From positions 448,666 through 512,665 of the forward strand of contig CBDAQZ010000004.1 of NCBI GenBank assembly GCA_965199335.1: 64,000 bases of DNA, written 5' to 3'. Positions 36,505 through 63,350 of this stretch are shown here, piece by piece (within the stretch, counting starts at the first letter, position 1; every line of letters begins with the position of its first letter). The notes beneath the pieces were generated by a model. That model had not been told where the DNA came from and searched no databases. It saw only the letters and a list, made by a program, of their open reading frames with translations. The DNA comes from Alphaproteobacteria bacterium. Its GTDB lineage: Bacteria > Pseudomonadota > Alphaproteobacteria > CALMVH01. A program made the translations under genes and the position numbers.

Positions 36505-37976
36505 TTCGCGCCGTTTCCGTCCGTTCCGGGCATGGTCTGGCCGCTGTCGGGCTGGTCGCCGGTTTTGTCGGTATTGCCGTCATCGCCCTTCTGGTCCGGC
36601 TTGCTGGGAGCCTTGGAAACCTTCGTGACGGGCTCGGTGCTGCCGCGCGAGGGCTGGACATCCTTTTGCTGCGTGTTTTCCTTGCCCTTGGCACCGGATG
36701 ATGATCCACTATCCTTGCCATCGTCCTTCTTGTCGGAATGGCCATCCTGGCTGGCGGTGGTGCCCTGGTTGGACGGCGCGGCGATCTTGACCTGCTGGCC
36801 CTCGGCCAGGGAGTCGGGTGGGTTCAGGACGATCTGCTCGTCCTTGCCGACGCCCGAAACCAGCTCGACGGTGTTGCCGAAGTCGCGTCCGACCTGGACC
36901 TCCTTCAGGTGCACCTTGTTGTCGGCACCGACGACCGCCAGCTGCATGCCATGAGCGCGGAAGATCAGCGTGTTCGCCGGTACGCGCACCGCACCTGAAA
37001 TATTGTCGCTCGGTACTTCCAGATGCACGTCGACATAGGCGCCGGGAAGCAGCATGCCGTCGTGATTGTCGATATCGACCTCGGTAAGCAATGTACGCGA
37101 GGCATTGTCGATCGAGTGCGAGGTACGCGCGACGACCCCCTTGAAAGTCTGCCCGGGTCGTTCGACCAGACGCAGGTCGGCCTTCATTCCGGAGGTAACA
37201 TAGGGTGACTGGTTCTGCGGAACCGGTACGAACGTGCGCAGCCGGTCGATCGCGGCGACACGGAACAATTCCCTGCCCGTGACCGCGGTGCCGGAGCCTC
37301 CGCCAGTGCCGATGCCCGACGTTACCAGCTGTCCGATATCGGTATTGCGCTCGGTAACGACGCCGTCGAACGGCGCATAGATTTTTTCGAACGATTGCAG
37401 CGCCTCGTAATGCTTCACATTGGCCTGCGCAGCGTCGACCCCGGCTTTTTGCGCCGCTTCGTTGCTGGCGCTCTGGTCGGCCTCCTCGCGCGAAACCGCG
37501 GCGGTCTTGACCAGAGCCTGATAGCGCTTGTTGGTGACGACGGCCAGGTCGTAATTGGCTTTTGCCGTGCCGACGGCGGCCTTGGCCTGTTCCAGCTGCT
37601 GGTCCAGTTCGGGGGTTTCGATCACCGCGATCAACTGGCCTTTCTTGACCTTCTCGCCAATGTCGAAATACCAGGCCTTCAGGTAACCGTCGGTACGTGC
37701 GTAGAGCGGCGCGTCCACGAAGGCCTCCAGATTGCCGGGCAGATTCAAGTCGTCCGTATCGGGTCCGACCGATGGCTTCAGTACACTGACCGTCGGAGTC
37801 GATTCGGCCAGGGTGCTGCGCTTCAGGTCGGCATGGGACAGCATGCGGACCACGATGCCGATCACTGCAAGCGCCAGAAGCACGATGATCAGAAGGATCA
37901 CCCAGATCCGGCTGCGGCTCTTATGTGGCTTGTCGTCGCCCAGTCGTTTGCCGACCAGAGTGTTGCTTGTGGACAT
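36501..37976 (-). CDS. Efflux periplasmic adaptor (HlyD/MFP family) with a roughly 100-aa Gly/Asp/Lys-rich disordered C-terminal tail
   Basis: N-terminal TM, then coiled-coil and barrel-sandwich motifs. The unusual low-complexity tail reads DGHSDKKDDGKDSG... Confidence 0.8.
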   Translation of the reverse strand: MSTSNTLVGKRLGDDKPHKSRSRIWVILLIIVLLALAVIGIVVRMLSHADLKRSTLAESTPTVSVLKPSVGPDTDDLNLPGNLEAFVDAPLYARTDGYLKAWYFDIGEKVKKGQLIAVIETPELDQQLEQAKAAVGTAKANYDLAVVTNKRYQALVKTAAVSREEADQSASNEAAQKAGVDAAQANVKHYEALQSFEKIYAPFDGVVTERNTDIGQLVTSGIGTGGGSGTAVTGRELFRVAAIDRLRTFVPVPQNQSPYVTSGMKADLRLVERPGQTFKGVVARTSHSIDNASRTLLTEVDIDNHDGMLLPGAYVDVHLEVPSDNISGAVRVPANTLIFRAHGMQLAVVGADNKVHLKEVQVGRDFGNTVELVSGVGKDEQIVLNPPDSLAEGQQVKIAAPSNQGTTASQDGHSDKKDDGKDSGSSSGAKGKENTQQKDVQPSRGSTEPVTKVSKAPSKPDQKGDDGNTDKTGDQPDSGQTMPGTDGNGAK

Positions 37977-37979
37977 CGA

Positions 37980-40900
37980 TCAGATCCTCGCCTCGCGCGC
38001 CGCGACTTTCTTTTGTCGGCGGCCGTGCATGATGGCAAAAACGGTGGGAACGAAAAATAACGTGGAGCCGGTGGCGACGGTCAGGCCGCCGATGACGGCG
38101 CGGCCCAGGGGCGCGTTCTGCTCGCCGCCCTCGCCGAGGCCCAGCGCCATGGGAATCATGCCGATGATCATCGCCAGCGCCGTCATCAGAACCGGGCGAA
38201 AGCGGGTAAAACCGGCTTCGATCGCGGCGGAAACGGGATCGAGGCCATCGTGCAGACGCTCGCGGGCGAAGCTGACCACCAGGATACTATTGGCGGTGGC
38301 GACGCCCATGCACATGATCGCACCGGTCAGCGCCGGGACCGAAAGCGGGGTGAAGGTCAGGAACAGCATCCAGACGATACCGGCCAGCGCGCCGGGCAAG
38401 GCCATGATAATGATGAAGGGATCGAGCCAGGACTGGAAGTTCACGACGATCAGCAGATAGACCAGTATGATCGCGAAGGCGAGGCCGCCCAGCAATTCGC
38501 TGTAGGCGCTTTTCATCGTCTGCGCCTGCCCACGCACCGAGACCGTCGATCCCTTCGGCAGGTCCTTCAGTGCGTCGTTCACGATAGCGTCGACGCGGTT
38601 CGCGACCGAGCCGAGATCGGTATCCTGCACCCCGGCATAGACGTCCAGCGTCGGAGCGGCGTTGTAGTGCGAGACGGTGGTGGGTCCACTTGTGCGTCCG
38701 AACGTGGCCAGATTCGACAACAGCGAAACTGGCCCATTCGCGCCGCTGATAGAGGTATTGCGTAAATCGTCTAGGGTGGTCAGCCGGTATTGTGGCGCCT
38801 GGGTGGCGATATTGTACTGCACGCCGGTTTTCTTATCGACCCAGAAAGTGGGCGCGGTCTGGAAGCTGCCCGACAACGCAACCAGCAGATTGCTGCCGAT
38901 GTCCTTCTGCGTAAGGCCGACCTCCATCGCCTTTATCCTATCGACATTGACATCGATCTGCGGCTGGTCGAAGCCTTGTTGCATGTGGACGTCGACGGCG
39001 CCCGGAACCAGCCTGATCTGCTCCATGACCTTGTTAAGCCATACGCGATTTTCTTCCAGCTTGTAGCCGCGCACCTGTACGTCGATCGGCGAGGGAAGGC
39101 CAAAGTTGAGAATCTGGCTAGTGATGTCGGCAGGCAAGAACGAAAATGTGATCGAAGGAAATGCATTGGGCAACTGCTTGCGGATTTCACGTACGTAGTC
39201 GGCTGTGGGTTTATGATCTTCTTTCAACTGTACCTGGATGTCGGCGTCCTGGGGGCCGACCACGCCCGAGCTGGTGTAGGTCAGATTCAGGCCGCTGTTC
39301 GGTATGCCGATATTGTCGGTGATGCTGTCCAGCTGGTCCGCAGGAATGATCTGGCGCAGCCTTTCCTCGATCTGATCGCACAGCTTGGCCGTATCTTCCA
39401 CGCGCAGACCGCTTTGCGCGCGGACGTGCATCTTGAACTGCCCGGCGTCGACCGAGGGGAAGAAGTCGAAGCCGACGAAAAAGATCAATCCAAGCGACAG
39501 GGCGCAAATAATCAGAAAAACGGGTGCGAAGATGCGGCGGCTGGCGACAGCGCCCTTGATGACGCCGTGATAGCGTTCGCGCAAGGCTTCGAAGCGATGT
39601 TCGAAGCCAAGCTGGAAACGGCCGAAGACGGTGGCGCCGCGCTGTGCGTCATGCGCCTCGTCATGCGTCTTCAGCCAGTAATTGGCCAGCGTCGGCACCA
39701 GCGTCCGCGACAGGATGTAGGAGGCCAGCATGGCGAAGACGACCGATTCGGCCAGAGGCACGAACAGGAACCCCGATACGCCGGAAAGGGCGAACATCGG
39801 GATGAACACGATACAGATGGCCAGCGTCGAAACCAGTGCCGGGATCGCGATCTGGTGGGCGCCGTCCAGGATCGCCTGCGTGATCTCCTTGCCCTGTTCC
39901 AGATGGTAGTTGATGTTCTCGATCGTCACCGTCGCATCGTCGACCAGGATGCCGACGGCCAGCGCCAGCCCGCCTAGCGTCATGATGTTCATGGTGTTGC
40001 CGAGCGCCGACAGACAGATGATCGAGGACAGAATGGCCAGCGGGATCGAGATCGTGATGATCGCCGTGCTGCGCAGGCTGCCCAGGAACAACAGTATCAT
40101 GGTGCCGGTCAGCAATGCGGCGATAACGGCTTCACGCACGACGCCGGATACGGCTGCCTTGACGAAAATCGACTGGTCGGCGATCGGCTTGACTGTCAAT
40201 GACGGCGGCAGGCCGGCCTGGATCTGAACCAGATTGTCCTTGACCCGGTTTACCACGTCCAGTGTGGAAGCGCGGCCGATCTTGAGAACGTTCATCAAAA
40301 CGCCGCGGCTGCCGTCTAGGCGGACGATGTTGGTTTCCGGCGGATGGCCGTCGCGGACATTCGCCACGTCGCTGATGCGGATCACGGTGCCGTTCGACAT
40401 CTTGATCGGCGCGTCATTCAGCTCCTCCGGTTTCAGCGGACTGGCGTTCAATTCGATGTTGTATTCCGTCTCGCCGATTTTTTCCGTGCCGGCTGGGATG
40501 ACCAGGTTCTGGTTGCCGATCGCGTTACTGACGTCCTGGCCTGACAGGCCATAGAAACGCAGCTTGCGTGGATCGATATCCACCTGGATCTGGCGCATCG
40601 CACCACCGTAAGGATAAGGCAGCGCTGCACCCTGCACCGTCGCCAGCTGGGTGCGGATGAAGTTCTGGCCCAGATCGTTGATCTCTGTTTCCGACAGGGT
40701 CGGGCTGGTCAGCGCCAGCTGGATGATCGGCACGCTCGATGCGTTGTAGGATACGACCAGCGGCGGCGTCGTGCCCGGCGGATCGGTCTTGAGCACAGTC
40801 TGCGATATAGCGGTGATCTGCGCTACCGCCATGTCGGGATTGACCGTCGGCTGGAAGAAGAACTTCACCACCGCCACGCCGTTCAGCGACTGCGATTCGA

Positions 40901-41141
40901 TATGCTCGATATCGTTGACGGTCGTGGTGCCCGCCCGCTCGTAGTTGGAGATGATGCGATCCGCCATCTCCTCGGGTAGCAGGCCGGTGTAGTTCCACAC
41001 GACTGCGACGATCGGGATGTCTATAGAGGGAAAGATATCAGTGGGCGTGCGCAGGATCGTAAGCGGGCCCATGATCAGGATCAGCAGGGCCAGGACGATA
41101 AAAGTATATGGCCGCTCCAGAGCGACCTTGACGATCCACAT
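37980..41141 (-). CDS. RND multidrug efflux permease (AcrB/CzcA superfamily)
   Basis: A 1053-aa protein with twelve TM helices and two large periplasmic loops. It is the first gene of the permease–adaptor–OMF operon. Confidence 0.95.
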   Translation of the reverse strand: MWIVKVALERPYTFIVLALLILIMGPLTILRTPTDIFPSIDIPIVAVVWNYTGLLPEEMADRIISNYERAGTTTVNDIEHIESQSLNGVAVVKFFFQPTVNPDMAVAQITAISQTVLKTDPPGTTPPLVVSYNASSVPIIQLALTSPTLSETEINDLGQNFIRTQLATVQGAALPYPYGGAMRQIQVDIDPRKLRFYGLSGQDVSNAIGNQNLVIPAGTEKIGETEYNIELNASPLKPEELNDAPIKMSNGTVIRISDVANVRDGHPPETNIVRLDGSRGVLMNVLKIGRASTLDVVNRVKDNLVQIQAGLPPSLTVKPIADQSIFVKAAVSGVVREAVIAALLTGTMILLFLGSLRSTAIITISIPLAILSSIICLSALGNTMNIMTLGGLALAVGILVDDATVTIENINYHLEQGKEITQAILDGAHQIAIPALVSTLAICIVFIPMFALSGVSGFLFVPLAESVVFAMLASYILSRTLVPTLANYWLKTHDEAHDAQRGATVFGRFQLGFEHRFEALRERYHGVIKGAVASRRIFAPVFLIICALSLGLIFFVGFDFFPSVDAGQFKMHVRAQSGLRVEDTAKLCDQIEERLRQIIPADQLDSITDNIGIPNSGLNLTYTSSGVVGPQDADIQVQLKEDHKPTADYVREIRKQLPNAFPSITFSFLPADITSQILNFGLPSPIDVQVRGYKLEENRVWLNKVMEQIRLVPGAVDVHMQQGFDQPQIDVNVDRIKAMEVGLTQKDIGSNLLVALSGSFQTAPTFWVDKKTGVQYNIATQAPQYRLTTLDDLRNTSISGANGPVSLLSNLATFGRTSGPTTVSHYNAAPTLDVYAGVQDTDLGSVANRVDAIVNDALKDLPKGSTVSVRGQAQTMKSAYSELLGGLAFAIILVYLLIVVNFQSWLDPFIIIMALPGALAGIVWMLFLTFTPLSVPALTGAIMCMGVATANSILVVSFARERLHDGLDPVSAAIEAGFTRFRPVLMTALAMIIGMIPMALGLGEGGEQNAPLGRAVIGGLTVATGSTLFFVPTVFAIMHGRRQKKVAAREARI

Positions 41142-44218: not shown

Positions 44219-45484
44219 ATGCAACGGTCGGCTGAAATTTTCTTAGGCGCCATTCTTGGCCTTGCAACTGCTTCGGGCGGAGTAATGGCGCAAGCGCCTT
44301 CCGACAAGGCGAAGCACGCGAAAGGACCCACAACCGATTACCAGCCGGCTGCCGATTATCCGCAGCTGGAAAGGCTACAGCAGGACTCGATCAAAGGCGT
44401 GGCCACAGCCTCGATAGCGCTGCAGGGCGCCATGAGCACGCCCCTGGACGAGAATCTGAAGATCGGTCTGATGCGCCAAGTCGGCCTGCAAAGCCGTGAA
44501 CTGTGCAAAACGCACCGTGTCGAAGCGTGCCCGGCGAAAAACAAGCCGAAAAGCACCGTGGATATCGAAGACATGGATGATGACGAGTTGCACAGGTATT
44601 GGACCGGCAAGGCATTTGACATCTTCACCCGTGCCGAAACGATCATCACCCAGATCACCGAGGAAGACAGGCGGAAAACCGATGTGCTTTCGACGCGAAC
44701 GGACCGGACGCCCGCGCGCGTGTCCGCCAGCCAGATAGAACGAAACATCAGGGACACCGCGGCTTTGGAGCTGGAAACCAAGGTTTTCAAGGCGGCCGTG
44801 GAAGACGAGAAGGAGGAAGAGCGTCTCGAAGCTATCGAACAAGAGGCCGAAGTAATGGGAATCCCGTCGCCTCCGGCTAAGGATACAGTGGCAGCGCCCG
44901 ATGACAAGCCGGCGTACGTTCCGGGGGCCGATCAGGCGGAATTGTGGTATTTGCAGCAGCAGGCCTGCAGCGCACTGCATGCCGCCGCAGACAGCTTGAC
45001 CGATACGCTCAGGGTGTATCCCTCGGACGGCGTGCTGAGCGAAAAGCAGCTTTTGGCGATCAACGCGACTGTCGCGAAAATGGACATCGATCATCCCGAC
45101 GCGGAATCCCTGGCCGGCAAGCCAACGCTCCAGGCACCGATCCTTCCGATTACGACATCGCTGGATGACGATCTGGATGCGGTGGCTCTTGCCGGCGATA
45201 TCGGACCCGTCGTTCCGCAACCGGGGCCCGATCCGGTCGCCGCACAAAAACCCCTGTCGCCTGCCGACCTGAAGCAGTCGACTGCCGATTTCATGGAAGA
45301 GGCACAGAATTTCATCCAGCAGACATTGCAGGAGCGCGACGAAAACCGCGAAGGCGAGGTACCGGAGAAAAGCATTGTCGTACACGACGTGACGACGATC
45401 TATGCCATCGAGCAGCTTACGCTGACCCTCAGGAAAGTCTTTGCTGAAAAGCCCGCGCTCCCTGCACCGAGGGCTTCGCAATGA
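44219..45484 (+). CDS. Hypothetical secreted acidic protein, 421 aa
   Basis: Signal peptide followed by an acidic, coiled-coil-like sequence with no recognised family. It is inserted between tuf and tRNA-Trp. Confidence 0.45.
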   Translation: MQRSAEIFLGAILGLATASGGVMAQAPSDKAKHAKGPTTDYQPAADYPQLERLQQDSIKGVATASIALQGAMSTPLDENLKIGLMRQVGLQSRELCKTHRVEACPAKNKPKSTVDIEDMDDDELHRYWTGKAFDIFTRAETIITQITEEDRRKTDVLSTRTDRTPARVSASQIERNIRDTAALELETKVFKAAVEDEKEEERLEAIEQEAEVMGIPSPPAKDTVAAPDDKPAYVPGADQAELWYLQQQACSALHAAADSLTDTLRVYPSDGVLSEKQLLAINATVAKMDIDHPDAESLAGKPTLQAPILPITTSLDDDLDAVALAGDIGPVVPQPGPDPVAAQKPLSPADLKQSTADFMEEAQNFIQQTLQERDENREGEVPEKSIVVHDVTTIYAIEQLTLTLRKVFAEKPALPAPRASQ

Positions 45485-45574
45485 CCGATTGCTCGAATTT
45501 TATTGTCGTTGCGGGTGGAGCGTAATACTATCTGCCGTGTTCAATATCGCGATCAGCCCATCGGGAGCCGGACT

Positions 45575-45964
45575 ATGAGTGAACTGGAAAAGCAGCTGGT
45601 GCAAGCAGAAGACAGGATTCTGGCGCTGGAAACAAGCGTTAACGACCAGGAAACGCGCAAGGAACTCAGCCCGGCACAGGCTGCCGCCGTCATGCAGCTG
45701 GTTCTTGCGGCGGAAACGGGATTGGGCGCCAATGCCGGCTCTGTACCTGCGGCCAACAACCTGAACGCCGGCGCTCTTGCCAGGGGTGCGATGGAACAGA
45801 TGTTCGAGGCCGACTTTCATCAGGGTGCGCCCGGCGCATCTCCCGGTCTGAGCGAACAGACGATGCGCGGCGAAATCGCCGCCGCGGCCAACACCGAACG
45901 AAGCCTCGTCCTTTTGGAAGAACGTGTGCGTGAAACGCTGGCATCGGCCTCTCCTTCCAACTGA
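45575..45964 (+). CDS. Hypothetical protein
   Basis: The start was set at MSELEKQLV, and a strong terminator follows at 45986. Confidence 0.35.
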   Translation: MSELEKQLVQAEDRILALETSVNDQETRKELSPAQAAAVMQLVLAAETGLGANAGSVPAANNLNAGALARGAMEQMFEADFHQGAPGASPGLSEQTMRGEIAAAANTERSLVLLEERVRETLASASPSN

Positions 45965-45985
45965 ATCGGCGCAGCAATTATAGGA

Positions 45986-46014
45986 AACCCGGCCTGAGTG
46001 CCGGGTTTTTTTTA
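45986..46014 (+). terminator. Rho-independent terminator
   Basis: The sequence is aacccggcctgagtgccgggtttttttta. Confidence 0.75.
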
Positions 46015-46110
46015 TGAAAGATTGATTTGCCAGTACGGTCTGAAAAGCAGAAAATGCTTCATGTACCAAGATAGTCTTGGTTGCCGGACAACGAAAGTAC
46101 AGAGAGTACC

Positions 46111-46473
46111 ATGTCGACTAGAAACGAGCTGATCGAAGCCCAGGTTATGGCCCTTGTCCTAAGGGCCGGCAGTATCGATGCGGCGGTAAAACGTGCCCCT
46201 TTGACCAAAAACCAGACGACGAGGGTCGAAAGGAGCATCAGCAGGGTTGCCGAAGCCCTGCATGTCGGCGCCGGCACCGCCAGTTGCGGGATCGGCGTTT
46301 CGCGCATGGCCAACAGGGTTGTCGGCGATATCGTGGCCGATACGGAAGCCAAGGCGGGCGACGGCGTGGACACCCAGGCGGAGATCGATGCAAACGCCCG
46401 GGCGATAGATCTGCTGGGGCTGCTGGATACACATGTGCGGCAGGATCTGGCCCAGAAAGAAATTCCTTCCTGA
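46111..46473 (+). CDS. Hypothetical protein
   Basis: An ORF of about 120 aa with no recognised family. Confidence 0.3.
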   Translation: MSTRNELIEAQVMALVLRAGSIDAAVKRAPLTKNQTTRVERSISRVAEALHVGAGTASCGIGVSRMANRVVGDIVADTEAKAGDGVDTQAEIDANARAIDLLGLLDTHVRQDLAQKEIPS

Positions 46474-46689
46474 CAGCGCAGGATGGTCGTTAATGCGGCG
46501 TGTAATGTCGTGAAGGAAGCGGTGATTCCGTGTTGCAAAGATGCCAAGTCGGTAAAAAAACTTGGTTAAATATGCAATCAAGGCTTGAGCCGCGCGCCTC
46601 TCGCACGTATGAGACGTTCGGTATTCGGGCGCGACCCTGGCCACTCCGGGCAGGGCGTGCCGACCGATGACATTATAAGGAAGATGGAA

Positions 46690-46956
46690 ATGAAGACTCT
46701 CGCTGCTGCCGCTCTGTCGCTGGTTCTGGTTGGATCCGCTGTGCCTGCTTTCGCTCAGATGGGCAACGAAACCACCACGACCACCACCACTGACAACACC
46801 ACCACGATGGGCAACAACACCACCCATCACCACAAGAAGACGACGCATCACAAGAAGACCCACAAGCACACCATGGGCAACAACGCGTCCAACACCACCA
46901 GCTCGACCACCACGGAAGAGCTGAACAACACCGAAGCAACCAACACCACCAAGTAA
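46690..46956 (+). CDS. Small secreted Thr/Asn/His/Lys-rich low-complexity peptide, 88 aa
   Basis: RBS ggaag, signal peptide MKTLAAAALSLVLVGSAVPAFA, then a TTTTTTT...HHHKKTTHHKKTHKH tract with a terminator after it. Confidence 0.45.
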   Translation: MKTLAAAALSLVLVGSAVPAFAQMGNETTTTTTTDNTTTMGNNTTHHHKKTTHHKKTHKHTMGNNASNTTSSTTTEELNNTEATNTTK

Positions 46957-49978: not shown

Positions 49979-50146
49979 GGCGTCTGCAAAAAGGAGCGTT
50001 TTTGCCGGAACGACCCCATGTACAGTAGCCATGTATCTGATTCTGCAGGACTAAAAAGTGCGATTCGACAGCAAGGCCCGGAGTGCCGGCGACGGGTGCT
50101 TGTCTATGATCCCGATAACGGAGATATTGAGACAAGGACGCATGCC

Positions 50147-51220
50147 ATGCCCGACTTACGAACCACCCAGCCGCCCATAACCCGCGATCCGCGCTGGGAC
50201 AGCATTGTGGCGCGCGATGCCGATGCCGATGGCCGGTTCTGGTATTCGGTGCTGACGACCGGCGTCTATTGCCGGCCCTCCTGCCCGTCGCGCATGGCCA
50301 GGCCTGAAAATGTGACCATCCACGCCACGCTAGCCGAGGCACAGGCGACGGGATACCGCCCGTGCCGCCGCTGCAACCCGCAGGGGCTGTCGGTTGCGGC
50401 GGAGAATGCCGCGCTGGTCGTCAAGGCCTGCCGCCTGATCGAAGCGGCGGAAGACGTGCCCAGTTTGAACGAACTGGCCGAGGCCGCGCAGCTCAGCCCG
50501 CACTACTTCCACCGGCTGTTCAAAAGCGTCACCGGCGTCACGCCCCGCGCCTATGCCATGGCGCACCGCGCGGCGCGCGTGCGGCAGGGGCTGACGACGG
50601 ACCGGACGGTGACCCAGGCGCTGCACCAGGCGGGCTTCGCCTCCAGCGGCCGGTTCTACGAGGCAGCGCCGGGCATGCTGGGCATGAGCCCCGGCCGCTA
50701 CCGCGCCGGCGCCCCGGGCGAAACCCTGCATTTCGCCATAGGACAGTGCTCGCTGGGCGCGATCCTGGTCGCCTCCAGCGCCAAGGGGGTGGTGGCGATC
50801 CTGATCGGCGACGACCCGGACGCCCTGGCCCGCGACCTGCAGGACCGGTTCAGGCACGCGCAGCTGGTCGGCGCGGATGCCGGCTACGAAATGCTGGTGG
50901 CAAAGGCGATCGGCCTGGTCGAAACGCCCGGCACCGGGCTGGACCTGCCGCTGGACATTCGCGGCACCAGCTTCCAGCAGAAGGTATGGCAGGCGTTGCG
51001 GCAGGTACCGGTGGGCCGGACCGCAACCTACAGCCAGATCGCGGCCAGTATCGGCGCGCCGGGGTCGGTCCGCGCCGTGGCGGGCGCCTGCGCCGCGAAC
51101 CCGCTGGCAATCGCCATACCCTGCCACCGCGTCGTGCGCACCGATGGGAGCCTGTCGGGCTATCGCTGGGGCGTGGAACGCAAGCGGGCGCTGATAGAGC
51201 GGGAGGCGGCTACGGGGTGA
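50147..51220 (+). CDS. ada: Bifunctional Ada: AraC-type regulator plus O6-methylguanine-DNA methyltransferase
   Basis: N-terminal Cys4 methylphosphotriester domain (CRPSCPSR...CRRC), an AraC HTH, and the C-terminal MGMT active site PCHRVV. Confidence 0.85.
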   Translation: MPDLRTTQPPITRDPRWDSIVARDADADGRFWYSVLTTGVYCRPSCPSRMARPENVTIHATLAEAQATGYRPCRRCNPQGLSVAAENAALVVKACRLIEAAEDVPSLNELAEAAQLSPHYFHRLFKSVTGVTPRAYAMAHRAARVRQGLTTDRTVTQALHQAGFASSGRFYEAAPGMLGMSPGRYRAGAPGETLHFAIGQCSLGAILVASSAKGVVAILIGDDPDALARDLQDRFRHAQLVGADAGYEMLVAKAIGLVETPGTGLDLPLDIRGTSFQQKVWQALRQVPVGRTATYSQIAASIGAPGSVRAVAGACAANPLAIAIPCHRVVRTDGSLSGYRWGVERKRALIEREAATG

Positions 51221-55710: not shown

Positions 55711-55747
55711 AAAAAAAACCAGGCCCCCGAAGGAGCCTGGTTCTTTT
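55711..55747 (-). terminator. Rho-independent (bidirectional) terminator after flagellin copy 1
   Basis: The sequence is aaaaaaaaccaggcccccgaaggagcctggttctttt. Confidence 0.75.
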
Positions 55748-56963
55748 GTTTCGACGTTTGCCGGTTCGGACCCGGCCGTTGTCGTTTCCGGATCAACCGC
55801 CCTTGAAGAGGCTGAGGATGTTGGAAGGCTGCGAGTTCGCGATCGACAGCGACTGCGTGGCCAGCTGCTGCTGGGTCTGCAATGCGGTCAGCTGCGCGCT
55901 GGCGGTTGCCAGATCGGCGTCCACCAGGTTACCGAGGCCGGTGTTGGCCGCGTCGCTGAGGTTCTGTACGAAGGTGATCTGCAGCTGGATGTTGCTGTTG
56001 TCCGCACCCAGACCGCCCAGGGCAGCGTTGACCTGGTTGGTGAAGTTGGACAAGGCGGCACCGAACACGGAGGTGCCCAGCGCACCGGTCTGAGCGGTCT
56101 GGTAGGCACTTGCCGAGTTGCTGACGGCAGCCAGGGCCGCGACGGCTTCGAACTGGTTGATCTCCGAACGAGAAATCAGGCCGCTTGCATTGGTTGCCAG
56201 GAATGCACTGGCAACCTGATCGTAGGTTGCGCCGGTTGCACCACCCGTGATGGTCGCCACCTGGTATACCAGACGGGCCAGACCCAGGAAGCCGTCGGTG
56301 CCGGCAGTGCCGCCCGTCAGATCCTGCGAATGGATGGTCAGCGATGCGCCATTCAGGCCGGACAGCACGTTCACGCTGGCCGGTGTTGAGAACGACGTGA
56401 AGCCGCCGTTGGTTACCGAGAACGTACCCTGGCTTGCGGCCAACAGGTTGATGCCGTTGTAGCTTGCGCCAGTGATAAAGGTCTGCACCTCATCGACCTG
56501 CGACTTCAGGTTTGCCGTGTAAGTCTGGCGCTGCTGGTCGCTGATGCTGCCGTCCGAAAGCTGCGTCAGGCTCTGCGTGATGTTGGTCAGCAGGTTCGAT
56601 ACCGCCGTAGCGCCGGTGATGGCGACGTTGGTCAGGCTCTGACCGTCGTTCAGCGCGGTGTTGACGGAGTCGTAGGCGGCCAGGTTGGACCTGACACCCT
56701 GAGCGACGGCGAAAACGGCTGCGTTGTCCTGTGCGCCGGCAACCTTGTCACCGGTCGAAACTTCGTTCTCGACCTTGTTCAGGTTGGTCTGGATGGAGGA
56801 GAGGCTTTTCAGCGCGATTTGCGCGCCGACATTTGTATTGATCGAAAAATTGGACATGACTGGCTCCCTTTCTGGTAGAGCTATGTAAACCGCCTCCGAA
56901 CAGGCGGAATCGCTTCTGCGATAGGAAGGATGATAGGTTACGCGTGTTAAATAACAGTAAAGT
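55713..56963. repeat. Tandem duplication unit 1: terminator, flagellin and promoter/5' UTR, about 1.25 kb
   Basis: Near-identical to 57547-58801, except for the central variable region of the flagellin. Confidence 0.85.
55793..56857 (-). CDS. fliC: Flagellin
   Basis: Conserved N-terminal D0/D1 (MSNFSINTNVGAQIAL...LSSGDKVAGAQDNAA) and C-terminal ...NILSLFKGG. Confidence 0.95.
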   Translation of the reverse strand: MSNFSINTNVGAQIALKSLSSIQTNLNKVENEVSTGDKVAGAQDNAAVFAVAQGVRSNLAAYDSVNTALNDGQSLTNVAITGATAVSNLLTNITQSLTQLSDGSISDQQRQTYTANLKSQVDEVQTFITGASYNGINLLAASQGTFSVTNGGFTSFSTPASVNVLSGLNGASLTIHSQDLTGGTAGTDGFLGLARLVYQVATITGGATGATYDQVASAFLATNASGLISRSEINQFEAVAALAAVSNSASAYQTAQTGALGTSVFGAALSNFTNQVNAALGGLGADNSNIQLQITFVQNLSDAANTGLGNLVDADLATASAQLTALQTQQQLATQSLSIANSQPSNILSLFKGG

Positions 56964-57005
56964 TGTATTCGCTAAGCCAATCAGGTGAATTTAAAGGACG
57001 ATGAC

Positions 57006-57527
57006 ATGACAAATGAGATCAAGCTTCACATCGGTGGCCAGCAGCCCAAGGAAGGCTGGAAAATCCTGAATATAATGGCAGGTCCCGATGTCGACATCAC
57101 AGGTTCGTGTACCGATCTTTCTCTGTTTCCGGACGGTAGCGTTGACGAGGTTTATGCCAGCCACGTTTTGGAACATCTCAATGCACAAGAAATCACAATC
57201 GCCATGGCGGAAATATCCCGTGTCATGAAACCGGGCGGTGTGCTCAAAGGCAGCGTTCCCGACATGAATGTACTGTGTCGTCTCTATATGGAGGCAATCG
57301 AGCGCCCCGCTGAGCAGGTCAAAATCATGCACATGATTTACGGCGGCCATGTCAATGAGTTCGATATCCACCACTTCGGTTTCAATTTTACCGTGATGGC
57401 GGCGATGCTAGGGCGGGCAGGTTTTTCCCGTATCGACCAAGTCGATTTTTTGAACGAGTTCACTGACACTAGCTCACTCACATTCAACGGTGTGCTGATC
57501 AGCCTGAACTTCATAGCGACAAAATAA
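57006..57527 (+). CDS. Small class I SAM-dependent methyltransferase (Methyltransf_11-like) embedded between the two flagellin genes
   Basis: LHIGGQQPKEGWKILNI...DLSLFPDGSVDEVYASHVLEHL is a SAM-MTase motif I / post-I pattern. The segment is lower in GC. Start set at the ATG after an RBS; the ORF is annotated from a GTG at 56985. Confidence 0.6.
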   Translation: MTNEIKLHIGGQQPKEGWKILNIMAGPDVDITGSCTDLSLFPDGSVDEVYASHVLEHLNAQEITIAMAEISRVMKPGGVLKGSVPDMNVLCRLYMEAIERPAEQVKIMHMIYGGHVNEFDIHHFGFNFTVMAAMLGRAGFSRIDQVDFLNEFTDTSSLTFNGVLISLNFIATK

Positions 57528-57544
57528 GAGCCTGACCGAGCCAA

Positions 57545-57581
57545 TAAAAAAACCAGGCCCCCGAAGGAGCCTGGTTCTTTT
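57545..57581 (-). terminator. Rho-independent terminator after flagellin copy 2
   Basis: Identical hairpin to the one at 55711. Confidence 0.75.
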
Positions 57582-58801
57582 GTTTCGACGTTTGCCGGTT
57601 CGGACCCGGCCGTTGTCGTTTCCGGATCAACCGCCCTTGAAGAGGCTGAGGATGTTGGAAGGCTGCGAGTTCGCGATCGACAGCGACTGCGTGGCCAGCT
57701 GCTGCTGGGTCTGCAATGCGGTCAGCTGCGCGCTGGCGGTTGCCAGATCGGCGTCCACCAGGTTACCGAGGCCGGTGTTGGCCGCGTCGCTGAGGTTCTG
57801 TACGAAGGTGATCTGCAGCTGGATGTTGCTGTTGTCCGCACCCAGACCGCCCAGGGCAGCGTTGACCTGGTTGGTGAAGTTTGCGAGAGCGGCACCGAAC
57901 ACGGAGTTGCCCAGCGTACCGGTCTGAGCGGTCTGGTAGGCACTTGCCGAGTTGCTGACGGCAGCCAGGGCCGCGACGGCTTCGAACTGGTTGATCTCCG
58001 AACGAGAGATCAAGCCACTTGTGTTGTTGGCGAGGAACGCGGAGGTAACCGTGTCGTTGCCGGTAACAGTAGCTGCGACCGAACCGGTTGCAGTCGCCAC
58101 CTGGTATACCAGACGGGCCAGACCCAGGAAGCCGTCGGTGCCGGCAGTGCCGCCCGTCAGATCCTGCGAGTGGATGGTCAGCGATGCGCCGCTCAGGCCG
58201 GACAGCACGTTCACGCTGGCCGGTGTTGAGAACGACGTGAAGCCGCCGTTGGTTACCGAGAACGTACCCTGGCTTGCGGCCAACAGGTTGATGCCGTTGT
58301 AGCTTGCGCCAGTGATAAAGGTCTGCACCTCATCGACCTGCGACTTCAGGTTTGCCGTGTAAGTCTGGCGCTGCTGGTCGCTGATGCTGCCGTCCGAAAG
58401 CTGCGTCAGGCTCTGCGTGATGTTGGTCAGCAGGTTCGATACCGCCGTAGCGCCGGTGATGGCGACGTTGGTCAGGCTCTGACCGTCGTTCAGCGCGGTG
58501 TTGACGGAGTCGTAGGCGGCCAGGTTGGACCTGACACCCTGAGCGACGGCGAAAACGGCTGCGTTGTCCTGTGCGCCGGCAACCTTGTCACCGGTCGAAA
58601 CTTCGTTCTCGACCTTGTTCAGGTTGGTCTGGATGGAGGAGAGGCTTCTTAGCGCGATTTGCGCGCCGACATTTGTATTGATCGAAAAATTGGACATGAC
58701 TGGCTCCCTTTCTGGTAGAGCTATGTAAACCGCCTCCGAACAGGCGGAATCGCTTCTGCGATAGGAAGGATGATAGGTTACGCGTGTTAAATAACAGTAA
58801 A
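57547..58801. repeat. Tandem duplication unit 2: terminator, flagellin and promoter/5' UTR
   Basis: See unit 1. Confidence 0.85.
57627..58697 (-). CDS. fliC: Flagellin, a second copy with a divergent central domain
   Basis: A 356-aa protein identical to copy 1 except around QVATATGSVAATVTGNDTVTSAFLANNTSG. Confidence 0.95.
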   Translation of the reverse strand: MSNFSINTNVGAQIALRSLSSIQTNLNKVENEVSTGDKVAGAQDNAAVFAVAQGVRSNLAAYDSVNTALNDGQSLTNVAITGATAVSNLLTNITQSLTQLSDGSISDQQRQTYTANLKSQVDEVQTFITGASYNGINLLAASQGTFSVTNGGFTSFSTPASVNVLSGLSGASLTIHSQDLTGGTAGTDGFLGLARLVYQVATATGSVAATVTGNDTVTSAFLANNTSGLISRSEINQFEAVAALAAVSNSASAYQTAQTGTLGNSVFGAALANFTNQVNAALGGLGADNSNIQLQITFVQNLSDAANTGLGNLVDADLATASAQLTALQTQQQLATQSLSIANSQPSNILSLFKGG

Positions 58802-58839
58802 GCTATGGAAGCCATTTCCTCTGGTCGCGGAGACATGCC

Positions 58840-60357
58840 TTGGTGAACCAGGCCCCCCTTTCCACACTCGCACTGGAATTGTCCGATCCTTTCAGGATAG
58901 TGGTCGAAAACCGGCTGGACTCGATGAGTCCTTATATCCTGCTCGAACAGGAGACCTGGTTCGAGGCCGATGCGGGGTTCGTACGTGCATTCCTGAAGCC
59001 CGGAATGCACGTTGTCGATATCGGCACGAATTGCGGGTTCTATACGCTTCTGGCGGCGGAAAAAGTTGGATCGGACGGGCATGTCTGGGGATTCGAGCCC
59101 GGCCTGGTTCCGGCGCGGCTGCTAAAGGAGTCGATAGCTGTGAACGGCTTTTCCAATATAACGCTCTATGAAGCCGCCGCAGGTCCGGAGGCCGGATCGG
59201 CATGGTTCACGGACAACAATTTTTCCGAACTGAGCGCGATCGCTCCCTCCGGCACGCCAGGCACGCGCGAAGTCAAGGTGGATAGCCTCGATCGTCTGCA
59301 TGCCGCAAAGGAAATCGATGCCGTCGACTTCATCAAGATCGATGCGGAGGGATTCGAGGAACAGGTCATTCTCGGCGGTAAGAATTTCTTCGCGCTGGAA
59401 AATCCGGTCGTGATGATGGAGGTCATGTCCGAGACCACGGACATGCGAGCCGCCGACATGCTGAAAGCCCAGGGCTACCAGCAATATCGTTACGTGCCGG
59501 AGGTTGGCTGCCTGGTTCCGCTGCTGATAGGAAAGCTTGGGGACTTTCTGCTCAATGTATTCCTGTGCAAGCCTGAAAAAGCAGAGGAATTGCGGACGGC
59601 GGGATTGTTGCTGACTGATGACGACCTGGACAAACCCTATCCAGCGGCGGACGCGTCCCTGTTCATCGATTATTTCAAGAACCTGCCCGTATTCGCCTCC
59701 TGCCCATCGCTGGCGGCCATGATTCCGGCGATGGATCAGGACGGAATCGGCTATGGTGTCATGTGCGCGGAATACCTTATGTCGCGGGATAGCACATTCC
59801 CGGTTGCGGAACGTTACGTGCGCCTGGCGCGGGCTGAAAAATGGGGCGACTTGAATTTCAGGAACGACCTGCCGCACAGCGTTATCCTGAGCTTCGTCCG
59901 CGTGCTGGCGGCTTGCGGGCGTTTCCAACTGGTGGTCGGCCTGCTGGGCATGGTCAGCAACGCCGCAACCAATATTTCCCCGGTCATTCAATACCCATTC
60001 CTGCCCCTGTCGATACGATGGGAAAGCCTGCCGGCACATGATGGAAATTTTCTGCGATGGCTTTTGCTTATGATCATCGACGAGGCAGAGATGCTGCGCA
60101 GCGCGTCCTCCTTCTATGAACCAAGCGGCACGCGCTCTGCTTACGATCAGCTTCTGGGAACGGAGTATCTGAGCGAAGCGCTGGAACGGCGCGCGGCCCT
60201 GCTGGAACTGATCAGAGGATCTTCTGAATTTCAGCGGCCCGCTTTTATTGCGGGCCCGGTTGCGCGCAATCGGGATATCTGGAATGAAATCGCAGCCAGG
60301 CTGGCCCGGAGCGAACGCAGGATCTCATCGCTCGACGCCGGACGAAGCCTGGCCTGA
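58840..60357 (+). CDS. FkbM-family methyltransferase with a roughly 250-aa C-terminal domain of unknown function
   Basis: HVVDIGTNCGFYTLLAA...VDFIKIDAEGFEEQVILG matches the FkbM domain. Start uncertain: TTG at 58840 or Met at 58924. Confidence 0.65.
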   Translation: MVNQAPLSTLALELSDPFRIVVENRLDSMSPYILLEQETWFEADAGFVRAFLKPGMHVVDIGTNCGFYTLLAAEKVGSDGHVWGFEPGLVPARLLKESIAVNGFSNITLYEAAAGPEAGSAWFTDNNFSELSAIAPSGTPGTREVKVDSLDRLHAAKEIDAVDFIKIDAEGFEEQVILGGKNFFALENPVVMMEVMSETTDMRAADMLKAQGYQQYRYVPEVGCLVPLLIGKLGDFLLNVFLCKPEKAEELRTAGLLLTDDDLDKPYPAADASLFIDYFKNLPVFASCPSLAAMIPAMDQDGIGYGVMCAEYLMSRDSTFPVAERYVRLARAEKWGDLNFRNDLPHSVILSFVRVLAACGRFQLVVGLLGMVSNAATNISPVIQYPFLPLSIRWESLPAHDGNFLRWLLLMIIDEAEMLRSASSFYEPSGTRSAYDQLLGTEYLSEALERRAALLELIRGSSEFQRPAFIAGPVARNRDIWNEIAARLARSERRISSLDAGRSLA

Positions 60358-60367
60358 ACCGTAAGGA

Positions 60368-60757
60368 TCAGACGGTTTCGGAAATGATCGGTTTGGCCGG
60401 GGCGGTCGCAGGGGGAGCCACAGCGGCGGCCGGCGCTGCCGCAGGCGTTTTCTGATCCGCAGTCGAAGCGATCGTTTCCACGATGGCGTTTTGCGCCGGT
60501 GCGGTGGTGTCGTCCTGCTTCTCGCTGTGCTGCGAATATGCCTTGATATCCTTTTCCGATGGATACTGGTTTATGACCGCACCTGTCGATGAGTTGCGAT
60601 ATTCAAGCACATCGGTTCCGGACTTTGGATCGATGATCAAAGCAGGGCTGAAATAGAAGGCCTGCTCCGCGACGGGCGCTTGCGCCTTTTGCGTATCCAG
60701 TGCCGCCTTCGCGATCGGTTGGGCCACTTCCGTGCCCTGAATTGATGATATGATCAT
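60368..60757 (-). CDS. flaG: FlaG-like flagellar protein
   Basis: A protein of about 129 aa with a FlaG-like core (FYFSPALIIDPKSGTDVLEYRNSSTGAVINQYPSEKDI) and an Ala/Pro-rich tail. Confidence 0.4.
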   Translation of the reverse strand: MIISSIQGTEVAQPIAKAALDTQKAQAPVAEQAFYFSPALIIDPKSGTDVLEYRNSSTGAVINQYPSEKDIKAYSQHSEKQDDTTAPAQNAIVETIASTADQKTPAAAPAAAVAPPATAPAKPIISETV

Positions 60758-61143: not shown

Positions 61144-61524
61144 ATGACCACCATGACCACAGGACCAGAACAGACGCCTCTGAGAATCGTATTCGGCCCG
61201 GAAGGCAAGCCGCTGACGATCGACGATCTGCCACCTGCAGACACCAAGCGCTGGGTTACCAAGCGCAAGGCAAGCCTTGTCGCCTGCATTCGCGCAGGAT
61301 TGCTGACCTTGGACGAGGCCTGCGAACGTTACTCGCTTTCGGTCGAGGAATTCCAGTCCTGGCAGATGCTGATCGAAAATCACGGCTTGCGCGGTTTGCG
61401 CGCCACCCGGATCCAGCATTACCGCCCGGCATGGACTGCGCCGCAAAAGCCAGTCGAACGCGGTATGAAAAACTATCTGCAACTGGTTCAGCAAAACGAA
61501 CAGACTCAAGAAGAACATTTATAA
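61144..61524 (+). CDS. DUF1153-like small protein upstream of fliF
   Basis: RWVTKRKASLVACIRAGLLTLDEACERYSLSVEEFQSWQ resembles DUF1153. Confidence 0.4.
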   Translation: MTTMTTGPEQTPLRIVFGPEGKPLTIDDLPPADTKRWVTKRKASLVACIRAGLLTLDEACERYSLSVEEFQSWQMLIENHGLRGLRATRIQHYRPAWTAPQKPVERGMKNYLQLVQQNEQTQEEHL

Positions 61525-61670: not shown

Positions 61671-63350
61671 GTGAGCAGCTACATAAACACAATGCGCAGT
61701 ATTGGAACCGCCCGCCTGGCGGTCATGGGTCTCGTAGCCGTGGTCCTGGCGGGATTTTTCATCTTCCTGATGACCCGGATGTCGGCCCAGCCGATGGCCT
61801 TGTTATACAGCGACCTGTCGGGCAGCGACGCCGGTGCCGTGGGCCAGAAGCTGGACGCGCTGAAGATCCCGTTCGAAGTCAATCCAGAAGGCACCAGCAT
61901 CAAGGTTGCCGCCGACCAGGTTGGCCGCGCCCGCATGGCGCTGGCGCAGGAAGGCCTGCCCAGCGGCGGCTCGTTCGGGTATCACGAGATCTTCGACCAG
62001 AACCAGTCCTTCGGCACCACCAGCTTCATGGAAAACCTCAACCAGGTTCGCGCCCTGGAGGGTGAACTGTCGCGTACCGTCTCCAGCCTGGCCCCGGTCA
62101 AGTCGGCGCGTATCCACCTGGTCATGCCCAAGCGCGAATTGTTCAGCCACGACCAGCAGCCCGCGACGGCAAGCGTGGTGCTGGCCCTTCGTCCCGGCGC
62201 CAGCCTGAACCGCGAACAGATCTCGGCCGTGCAGCACCTGATCGCATCGGCGGTGCCGCAGCTGAAGCCGGGCCAGGTGTCGATCGTCGACGACCACGGC
62301 AATCTGCTGGCCCGCCCCGAGGACGGCGACTCCGACAACATGCAGGCGGCGAACAACGACGAGATGCGCCACGCCTATGAAACCAGGCTTTCGCATGAGA
62401 TCGAAACGCTGGTCGGCCGTACGGTCGGCGACGGCAAGGTCCGCGCGACGGTGACCGCCGATATGGATTTCGACAAGATCAGCACCAGCCAGGAAACTTT
62501 CGATCCCGACCAGCAGGTCGTCCGCTCGACCCAGACGGTCGACGAGAAGAACGACAGTCAGGACCAGCAGAAGGATGGATCGGTATCGGTGGCCAACAAC
62601 CTACCCGCCGCCGGCGCCGCAGGGGGCGCCTCCGGCACCAGCAGCACGACCAAGGGAACGCGCTCGGAAGAGACGACCAACTACGAGATCGGCAAGACCA
62701 CGCGCGCCCAGGTTCGTGAAGGCGGACAGGTCAAGAAATTGTCGATCGCCGTGCTGGTGGACGGCAACTACACCACCGATGCCGATGGCAAGCAGACCTA
62801 CGCCCCGCGCGACAAGACCGAGATGGACCAGATCAATTCGATCGTGAAATCCGCGACCGGCTACGATGCCAAGCGCGGCGACGTGATCGATGTCGCCAAC
62901 ATGCGGTTCGTCACCGACACCGGCGATGGCGCGACCGCACCCGATACCAGCATCATGGGCTTCGAGCGCAGCGACATCATCCACCTTGCCGAAACCTCGG
63001 TGCTGGGCCTCGTCGCCCTGCTGGTCGTGCTGCTGGTGGTGCGCCCGATCGTAAGCCGCCTCGGCGGCAATGCCGGCGGCGAGGGCGCTTCGTCCAGCCT
63101 GTCCCTGCCGAACGCTCAGCTTCAGGCGGCGCTGGCCGGCCCCTCGTCTTCGGCAGGGGGCATGGAAGCACTGGAGCAGGGCGGATCGACGCCTCTGCTG
63201 GAAAGCGACGACGACGATACGATGATCAACCTCAGCCGCGTGGAGGGACGGGTGAAAGCCTCGTCCTTGCGCAAGATCGGCGAGATCGTGGAAAAACACC
63301 CCAGCGAAGCGGTCTCGATCATCCGCGGCTGGATGTACCAGGAAACCTAA
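61671..63350 (+). CDS. fliF: Flagellar M-ring protein FliF
   Basis: A 559-aa protein with an N-terminal TM, YscJ/FliF domains and a C-terminal TM. Confidence 0.93.
   Translation: MSSYINTMRSIGTARLAVMGLVAVVLAGFFIFLMTRMSAQPMALLYSDLSGSDAGAVGQKLDALKIPFEVNPEGTSIKVAADQVGRARMALAQEGLPSGGSFGYHEIFDQNQSFGTTSFMENLNQVRALEGELSRTVSSLAPVKSARIHLVMPKRELFSHDQQPATASVVLALRPGASLNREQISAVQHLIASAVPQLKPGQVSIVDDHGNLLARPEDGDSDNMQAANNDEMRHAYETRLSHEIETLVGRTVGDGKVRATVTADMDFDKISTSQETFDPDQQVVRSTQTVDEKNDSQDQQKDGSVSVANNLPAAGAAGGASGTSSTTKGTRSEETTNYEIGKTTRAQVREGGQVKKLSIAVLVDGNYTTDADGKQTYAPRDKTEMDQINSIVKSATGYDAKRGDVIDVANMRFVTDTGDGATAPDTSIMGFERSDIIHLAETSVLGLVALLVVLLVVRPIVSRLGGNAGGEGASSSLSLPNAQLQAALAGPSSSAGGMEALEQGGSTPLLESDDDDTMINLSRVEGRVKASSLRKIGEIVEKHPSEAVSIIRGWMYQET

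Follow-up and report, generated by a model that had tools for sequence, protein, structure and literature searches.

The 64,000-nt window analysed here (the whole stretch at positions 448,666 to 512,665 of contig CBDAQZ010000004.1, from an alphaproteobacterium) carries, near its right end, two near-identical flagellin genes together with genes for two methyltransferases. One is a 173-aa S-adenosylmethionine (SAM)-dependent enzyme, hereafter the small methyltransferase, and the other is a 505-aa FkbM-family protein whose C-terminal domain is predicted to fold like a tetratricopeptide repeat (TPR) protein. The locus is probably a small filament-modification island with no sugar-attaching enzyme nearby, and we infer that its target is flagellin. 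Our tentative reading is a flagellin-associated methylation island in which the FkbM-TPR-like enzyme and the small methyltransferase, its recurrent partner, most probably carry out sugar O-methylation; we put the probability of this reading at roughly 0.4. The features of the island are as follows.

55712-56962, repeat unit 1 (1251 nt), with a terminator, flagellin 1 and 105 nt of 5' region (repeat search, pairwise alignment and difference map)
55712-55747 and 57546-57581, minus strand, terminator-like hairpin with a U-run, 3' of each flagellin (RNA folding)
55793-56857, minus strand, flagellin 1 (354 aa; Flagellin_N 68.7 bits, Flagellin_C 52.6 bits)
56174-56252 (79 nt), hypervariable patch in the flagellin central domain, with its counterpart in unit 2 at about 58014-58098 (alignment and difference map)
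57006-57527, plus strand, small SAM-dependent methyltransferase (173 aa; motifs LHIGG, GW, VD and YASHVLEH; Methyltransf_11 39.5 bits)
57546-58802, repeat unit 2 (1257 nt), filling the gap from the stop codon of the small methyltransferase to the start codon of the FkbM gene (repeat search and alignment)
57627-58697, minus strand, flagellin 2 (356 aa; Flagellin_N and Flagellin_C matches; 95% identical to flagellin 1)
58840-59574, plus strand, FkbM-type SAM methyltransferase domain (residues 1-245 of the 505-aa protein; PF05050 and TIGR01444)
59575-60357, plus strand, TPR-like all-helical C-terminal domain (residues 246-505 of the same protein; no Pfam model)

The open reading frame (ORF) at 58840-60357 on the plus strand, divergent from flagellin 2, had been assigned to the FkbM family in a preliminary description made from the sequence alone, and PF05050 (51.2 bits against a cut-off of 22.7, residues 60-214) and TIGR01444 (84 bits against 37.7), which jointly span residues 58-214, confirmed that assignment. 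The SAM-binding and signature motifs are present (D-x-G-x-N-x-G, an acidic residue after strand 2, and K-I-D-A-E-G-x-E), the domain has the class I methyltransferase fold, and all motif residues invariant among 14 full-length homologues are kept. The AlphaFold2 model of the 505-aa protein, built from the homologue alignment, has two domains, both confidently predicted (predicted local distance difference test score, pLDDT, 88.5; predicted template-modelling score, pTM, 0.89). The preliminary description had called the C-terminal domain unrecognised. Residues ~245-505 are indeed covered by no Pfam or NCBIfam family, and no TPR sequence profile from either collection matched them at E <= 0.01; the fold, however, is not an unfamiliar one. 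Modelled alone, the domain is all-helical (pLDDT 85.7), and the predicted structure is a helical repeat (alpha-solenoid) resembling TPR proteins.

The small methyltransferase lies between the two flagellins on the opposite strand, as first described. Its match to Methyltransf_11 exceeds the cut-off of 21.2 bits, but the alignment is confined to the C-terminal half of the model (positions 47-93 of 95). Motif I reads LHIGG in place of the usual GxGxG, and all 24 homologues compared share LHIGG together with D30, Y50, S52, H53, E56 and H57. The protein has 344 homologues, which form a family of ~170-aa "predicted SAM-dependent methyltransferases", and it retains every residue that is invariant in that family. 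An alternative GTG start at 56985 would extend it to 180 aa. A search of PDB sequences returned no informative relative for the small methyltransferase or the FkbM protein.

The FkbM protein is a full-length member of a broad subfamily. A profile of its C-terminal domain (C-domain) found 1,220 representatives, 1,004 of them at E <= 1e-10, among 1.84 billion clusters at 50% identity. The domain almost always occupies residues ~240-480 of proteins of ~480 aa or the C-terminus of proteins of 1,000-2,400 aa, and the long members sampled run in the order TPR, GT41/NGT-like, FkbM, C-domain. The subfamily was scanned in one genome per GTDB species, with ORFs called in the loci and then clustered. At least 439 relatives were found in Proteobacteria, Cyanobacteria, Planctomycetes, Verrucomicrobia and other phyla, and of the 81 FkbM proteins encoded by the fetched loci, 80 have the C-domain. 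A TPR-containing glycosyltransferase of family GT41 (OGT/NGT-like; confirmed with Pfam on representatives) is encoded in 40 of 79 subfamily loci, lies within 3 kb of the FkbM+C gene in 35 of the 79, and is part of the FkbM polypeptide in at least seven. Since GT41 genes are few per genome, this linkage would be far above chance. Among the 205 other close neighbours surveyed with Pfam, mostly unrelated housekeeping genes, nothing besides GT41, TPR and methyltransferase genes was enriched.

Relatives of the small methyltransferase occur in the same company. One homologue (P0056) is fused to GT41, and small methyltransferase and FkbM+C genes are adjacent and co-directional in loci L004, L089 (with two copies of the former), L031 and, distantly, L069. 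L093 has a small methyltransferase gene, then two short FkbM genes, and TPR-GT41 genes in the vicinity. Given these contexts, and that of L091 described below, the two window enzymes are members of families that recurrently partner each other and GT41 enzymes.

Filament genes adjoin these modules in several unrelated lineages. Flagellin or fliF/fliG lies next to GT41-FkbM+C modules in two of them: L009 holds a TylF methyltransferase, a GT2-TPR-GT1 protein, an FkbM-C-TPR-GT41 fusion and a flagellin, and L031 holds fliG, fliF, a TPR-methyltransferase, a TPR-GT41, an FkbM+C protein, a small methyltransferase 43% identical to that of the window, and a second TPR-GT41. In L091 (5653-10477), the run fliT-fliS-fliD-flagellin-flagellin is divergent from the gene of a 180-aa small methyltransferase that shares 47% identity with that of the window. 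The stop codon of this gene and the start of a TPR-GT41 gene (645 aa) overlap; this methyltransferase-GT41 flagellin island is compact and adjoins surE-pcm-nlpD-rpoS-type genes. Type IV pilin genes adjoin the module in five further contexts (L005/L006, L010, L021, L026 and L085), with the order pilS-pilR-pilin-FkbM-104 aa-TPR-GT41 in L005 (9487-12813) and L006 (2684-7150), which suggests that the same module may serve as a pilin modifier in other lineages, cyanobacteria included.

The window island itself has counterparts in related genomes. The neighbouring genes on its right side are as follows.

60368-60757, minus strand, conserved 129-aa flagellar-locus protein, possibly FlaG-like, at the right edge of the variable island (orthologues in L002, L004, L089 and L090)
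61144-61524, plus strand, sciP (DUF1153; NF051866, 128 bits)
61671-63350, plus strand, fliF (YscJ_FliF, 215 bits)

The FlaG model PF03646 did not match the 129-aa protein of the window; among its orthologues only that of L090 matched, at E 0.005 and 17.4 bits, below the cut-off of 23.8. The position of sciP, a CtrA inhibitor gene, immediately upstream of fliF implies CtrA/SciP-type cell-cycle control of the flagellar genes. The leucyl-tRNA synthetase LeuS is 62-65% identical to those of Azospirillum, Magnetospirillum and Skermanella and nearest to that of the L004 contig (81%), which would place the source among uncultured alphaproteobacteria.

The preliminary description had suggested comparing flagellin loci in relatives, and this comparison revealed versions of the island at the same site, between flagellin and the 129-aa gene upstream of sciP-fliF, in four related metagenomic loci. 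L004 has flagellin, then the small methyltransferase and FkbM genes, then the 129-aa-type gene; L089 has two small methyltransferase genes and FkbM before the 129-aa-type gene; L090 has flagellin, the small methyltransferase and the 129-aa-type gene, with no FkbM. In L002, a GT32-like glycosyltransferase gene and flagellin are followed by FkbM, the 129-aa-type gene, sciP and fliF; the glycosyltransferase-like protein (L002:7670-8590, 306 aa, Gb3_synth/GT32-like, E 1.6e-7) sits beside flagellin, at a position that is empty in the window. Contrary to what had been supposed, the system is not strain-specific and occurs across the lineage with variable content. These four loci, together with L009, L031, L091 and the published islands discussed at the end (PMC4875605), uphold the earlier statement that FkbM and small SAM methyltransferases recur in filament-modification contexts.

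Within the island, sequence divergence is high. Between the window and L004, identity is 54% for the small methyltransferase and 46% for FkbM, against 81% for LeuS and 83% for flagellin, and the window FkbM protein is closer (53%) to homologues from another sample than to that of L004. The small methyltransferase gene has a GC content of 0.50, and GC content at third codon positions (GC3) is 0.60 in this gene and 0.68 in the FkbM gene, versus 0.89 in leuS, 0.84 in fliF and 0.80 in the flagellins. On sequence comparison, the island appears to be variable and fast-evolving or exchanged, which points to gene exchange or diversifying evolution within it. In L004 and L089 the two methyltransferase genes lie side by side without an intervening flagellin, and the corresponding gap in the window holds repeat unit 2. 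This arrangement is most simply read as insertion of a second flagellin cassette into a methyltransferase-FkbM operon.

The repeat units are direct repeats, 96% identical by pairwise alignment, and a 1.25-kb repeat at this identity cannot have arisen by chance. That each of the two near-identical units carries a flagellin and a terminator, as first noticed, was borne out by alignment and RNA folding. Both flagellin ORFs score above threshold for Flagellin_N and Flagellin_C. The units differ at 50 alignment columns, a 6-nt indel included, and 38 of these fall within 56174-56252, with long identical stretches flanking the patch on both sides. At the protein level, the substitutions are concentrated in residues 168-270. 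The earlier statement that the flagellins differ only in the central domain therefore holds for most of the substitutions but not for K17R, which lies in the N-terminal helix. Residues 141-272 contain no lysine in either protein, out of 4-5 lysines per whole flagellin, and are 25-27% serine plus threonine (25% in flagellin 1). Methylation of lysine by a FliB-type enzyme was considered and rejected: neither Pfam nor NCBIfam gave a FliB-type match, and surface lysine methylation of that type is excluded because the exposed central domain is devoid of lysine. N-x-S/T sequons number five in flagellin 1 and seven in flagellin 2, and the change arises in the hypervariable patch, where flagellin 1 has NAS and flagellin 2 has NDT, NNT and NTS. 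This shift is of possible interest in that GT41 includes HMW1C-type cytoplasmic N-glycosyltransferases; chance is an equally possible explanation.

The hairpin after each flagellin folds on the minus strand with a free energy of -27.3 kcal/mol (z score -5.7). In unit 2 it folds on the plus strand as well, just past the small methyltransferase's stop codon, with a T-rich tail (-19.9 kcal/mol; z score -4.5). Each unit also includes 105 nt upstream of the flagellin ATG. The preliminary description had taken this for the full 5' region; its completeness is presumed, since the scan for sigma-70 promoters and terminators, which overlooked the mismatched terminator hairpin, stayed at background level and found no promoter for the flagellins or either methyltransferase. 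Small hairpins, among them CCGCCUGUUCGGAGGCGG, occur in the flagellin leader (56862-56925 and 58702-58765, minus strand), which folds weakly better than shuffled sequence (z score -2.0). A CTTCTGCGAT motif in the leader, present upstream of the L004 flagellin too, might serve FlbT/FlaF-type post-transcriptional control. An Rfam scan returned tRNAs only and no match within the flagellin/methyltransferase locus.

These data can be assembled into a working model of flagellin modification. Flagellin binding by Caulobacter FlmG requires its TPR domain, which on its own suffices for binding and gives specificity (PMC7591256). By analogy, the TPR-like domain of the window protein would serve to dock FkbM on flagellin in the cytoplasm, ahead of export. 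Both enzymes would add methyl groups, most probably O-methyl groups on the sugars of an O-linked flagellin glycan, for which the serine- and threonine-rich central domain would supply the attachment sites; the glycosyltransferase and the sugar pathway would be encoded outside the window. The bidirectional terminator-like hairpin after the small methyltransferase gene probably uncouples its transcription from that of the FkbM gene. Sugar O-methylation on a flagellin glycan is favoured because FkbM enzymes usually have this chemistry, the families are tightly coupled to GT41 and VioM of Pseudomonas syringae sets a precedent. The placement of both methyltransferase genes among flagellins, with sciP and fliF further along the same flagellar locus, lends further support.

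Several observations weigh against methylation of a flagellin glycan, and the main weakness is that no glycosyltransferase was found in the examined parts of the window. A tblastn search detected no GT41 in the whole 64 kb, and the ORFs scanned between 30 and 64 kb included no glycosyltransferase and no nucleotide-sugar or sugar-pathway family; the 0-30 kb part is partly annotated (ATP synthase families dominant, and Obg), and a glycosyltransferase may lie there. Measured against a glycosylation island, the locus shares the adjacency to flagellin genes, and the island holds neither a glycosyltransferase nor nucleotide-sugar genes. Measured against the GT41-coupled module, it has FkbM followed by the C-domain, and the window has no adjacent or fused TPR-GT41. 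About half of the subfamily loci have no nearby GT41, and since their remaining neighbours are unrelated housekeeping genes, the subfamily is not confined to filament loci. A literature search found no experimental characterisation of the FkbM+C-domain subfamily. Conservation of the island at one site partly reflects shared ancestry, because the loci come from related genomes (LeuS 81% identical to that of L004), and the close homologues in L001 and, on its upstream side, L003 have no adjacent flagellin in the available sequence. The proposal in the preliminary description of a flagellin methylation or sugar O-methylation system is thus partly supported, by the linkage of both families to filament contexts, whereas flagellin as the target is presumed and the sugar-attaching enzyme is missing from the examined parts of the window.

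The methyltransferases might instead act on something other than flagellin (a glycoprotein or adhesin, a polysaccharide or a small molecule), the intergenic zone being a recombination-prone landing site. This possibility, which we judge rather unlikely, could account for the atypical GC3 of the two genes (0.60 and 0.68 versus 0.84-0.89 for neighbours) and for their identities to L004 of 46% and 54%, far below those of LeuS and flagellin, although surface-structure modification islands themselves typically have variable, low-GC content that evolves fast. It would also fit the phage-like, non-flagellar context in which another relative has its small methyltransferase (L088), the combination of these families with YadA-like adhesin fragments in L093, and the roughly half of FkbM+C loci that contain no filament gene or GT41. 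Four related loci keep the island, with varying content, at one and the same flagellar site, and flagellin or flagellar linkage recurs independently in L009, L031 and L091; both observations are harder to reconcile with a non-flagellar target.

Direct methylation of flagellin side chains by the FkbM-TPR-like enzyme, with or without the small methyltransferase and with no glycan involved, would explain why no glycosyltransferase was found in the examined parts of the window or in L004, L089 and L090, and the joining of the catalytic domain to a TPR-like one fits an enzyme that acts on proteins. A precedent exists in Shewanella flagellin, which carries methylated lysines (PMC3765264). Here, however, the central domain has no lysine, neither enzyme has a FliB-type family match, and the subfamily is strongly coupled, often by fusion, to GT41 glycosyltransferases. 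Moreover, the FkbM-family enzymes that have been characterised O-methylate hydroxyl groups of sugars or polyketides. We regard direct methylation as improbable. A bolder form of the idea, to which we give slightly less credence still, is that FkbM+TPR-like proteins are a new class of filament-subunit methyltransferase whose helical domain docks on flagellin or, in other lineages, type IV pilin and which methylates the subunit or its bound glycan in the cytoplasm, the islands lacking a glycosyltransferase in this alphaproteobacterial lineage performing direct methylation of the lysine-free domain, for instance O- or N-methylation of Ser, Thr, Asn or Gln. Finally, the two genes could be inactive leftovers of a larger glycosylation island that lost its glycosyltransferase. 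The lack of a nearby glycosyltransferase, the splitting of an ancestral methyltransferase-FkbM pair by a flagellin cassette and a terminator-like hairpin, the atypical codon usage and the apparent loss of FkbM in L090 are compatible with decay; nevertheless, both ORFs are full length, all family-invariant residues are kept, and the AlphaFold2 model of both FkbM-protein domains is confident. Versions lacking a glycosyltransferase also persist across homologues merely 44-53% identical, implying continued purifying selection on such islands, and we find the remnant explanation the hardest of all to credit.

Elsewhere in the window, the ORFs scanned between 30 and 55 kb encode EF-Tu, NusG, L1, an Ada-like regulator, resistance-nodulation-division (RND) efflux components and malic enzyme, or had no Pfam match. 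The ORFs downstream of EF-Tu (44219-46869) have a slightly lower GC content (0.55-0.60), and three of them, 44219-45484 (421 aa; scanned over 45014-45484 only), 45500-46069 and 46159-46869, gave no Pfam match at E <= 1e-6. The regions 34984-41141 and 50018-51220 hold an RND efflux operon (OEP, membrane-fusion protein and AcrB-like) and a regulator of the Ada-like methylphosphotriester/O6-methylguanine DNA methyltransferase type, and neither has a connection to the island.

Modifying flagellin changes how the filament assembles, what surface properties it has and how the immune system or phages recognise it. If our reading of the locus as a methylation island is correct, a compact island made of methyltransferases alone has been identified, together with an uncharacterised two-domain methyltransferase subfamily of ~1,000 clusters at 50% identity that is a recurrent partner of OGT/NGT-like GT41 enzymes. 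The substrates of GT41 enzymes are unknown in most bacteria, and the flagellin- and pilin-adjacent loci offer concrete candidate substrates for GT41-methyltransferase modules.

The general idea is not new, because flagellin glycosylation islands of Enterobacteriaceae that contain FkbM and AdoMet (that is, SAM) methyltransferases as well as methyltransferase-fused GT41 enzymes have already been described bioinformatically (PMC4875605), and nothing in the present island is mechanistically surprising. In the viosamine island of P. syringae, deletion of vioM removes 14 Da per flagellin glycan (PMC3927599). Like these two systems, the window locus places variable genes of atypical composition beside flagellin, and like the Enterobacteriaceae islands it combines FkbM-family and AdoMet methyltransferases from families linked to GT41 enzymes. 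Unlike them, it has two methyltransferases only, with no glycosyltransferase or nucleotide-sugar gene found, and its FkbM enzyme bears a TPR-like domain. VioM (241 aa) is described simply as a methyltransferase. Caulobacter FlmG is likewise alphaproteobacterial and joins a helical-repeat domain to a catalytic domain; in the window protein, by contrast, the catalytic domain is a methyltransferase, not a glycosyltransferase, and the helical domain is C-terminal and TPR-like by predicted fold only. Bacterial GT41 (OGT/HMW1C-NGT-like) TPR enzymes are recurrent neighbours or fusion partners of both methyltransferase families, and none is encoded in the window. FliB methylates flagellin lysines in Salmonella, and FliB-type systems resemble the proposed one as post-translational flagellin methylation by an enzyme encoded near flagellar genes, whereas the window proteins have no FliB-type match and the exposed flagellin domain has no lysine. 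Against this background, what differs here is the methyltransferase-only island, the dedicated TPR-like domain without a Pfam model on an FkbM enzyme, and a broad, uncharacterised two-domain subfamily that is coupled to GT41 and, in several lineages, linked to flagellin or pilin genes.

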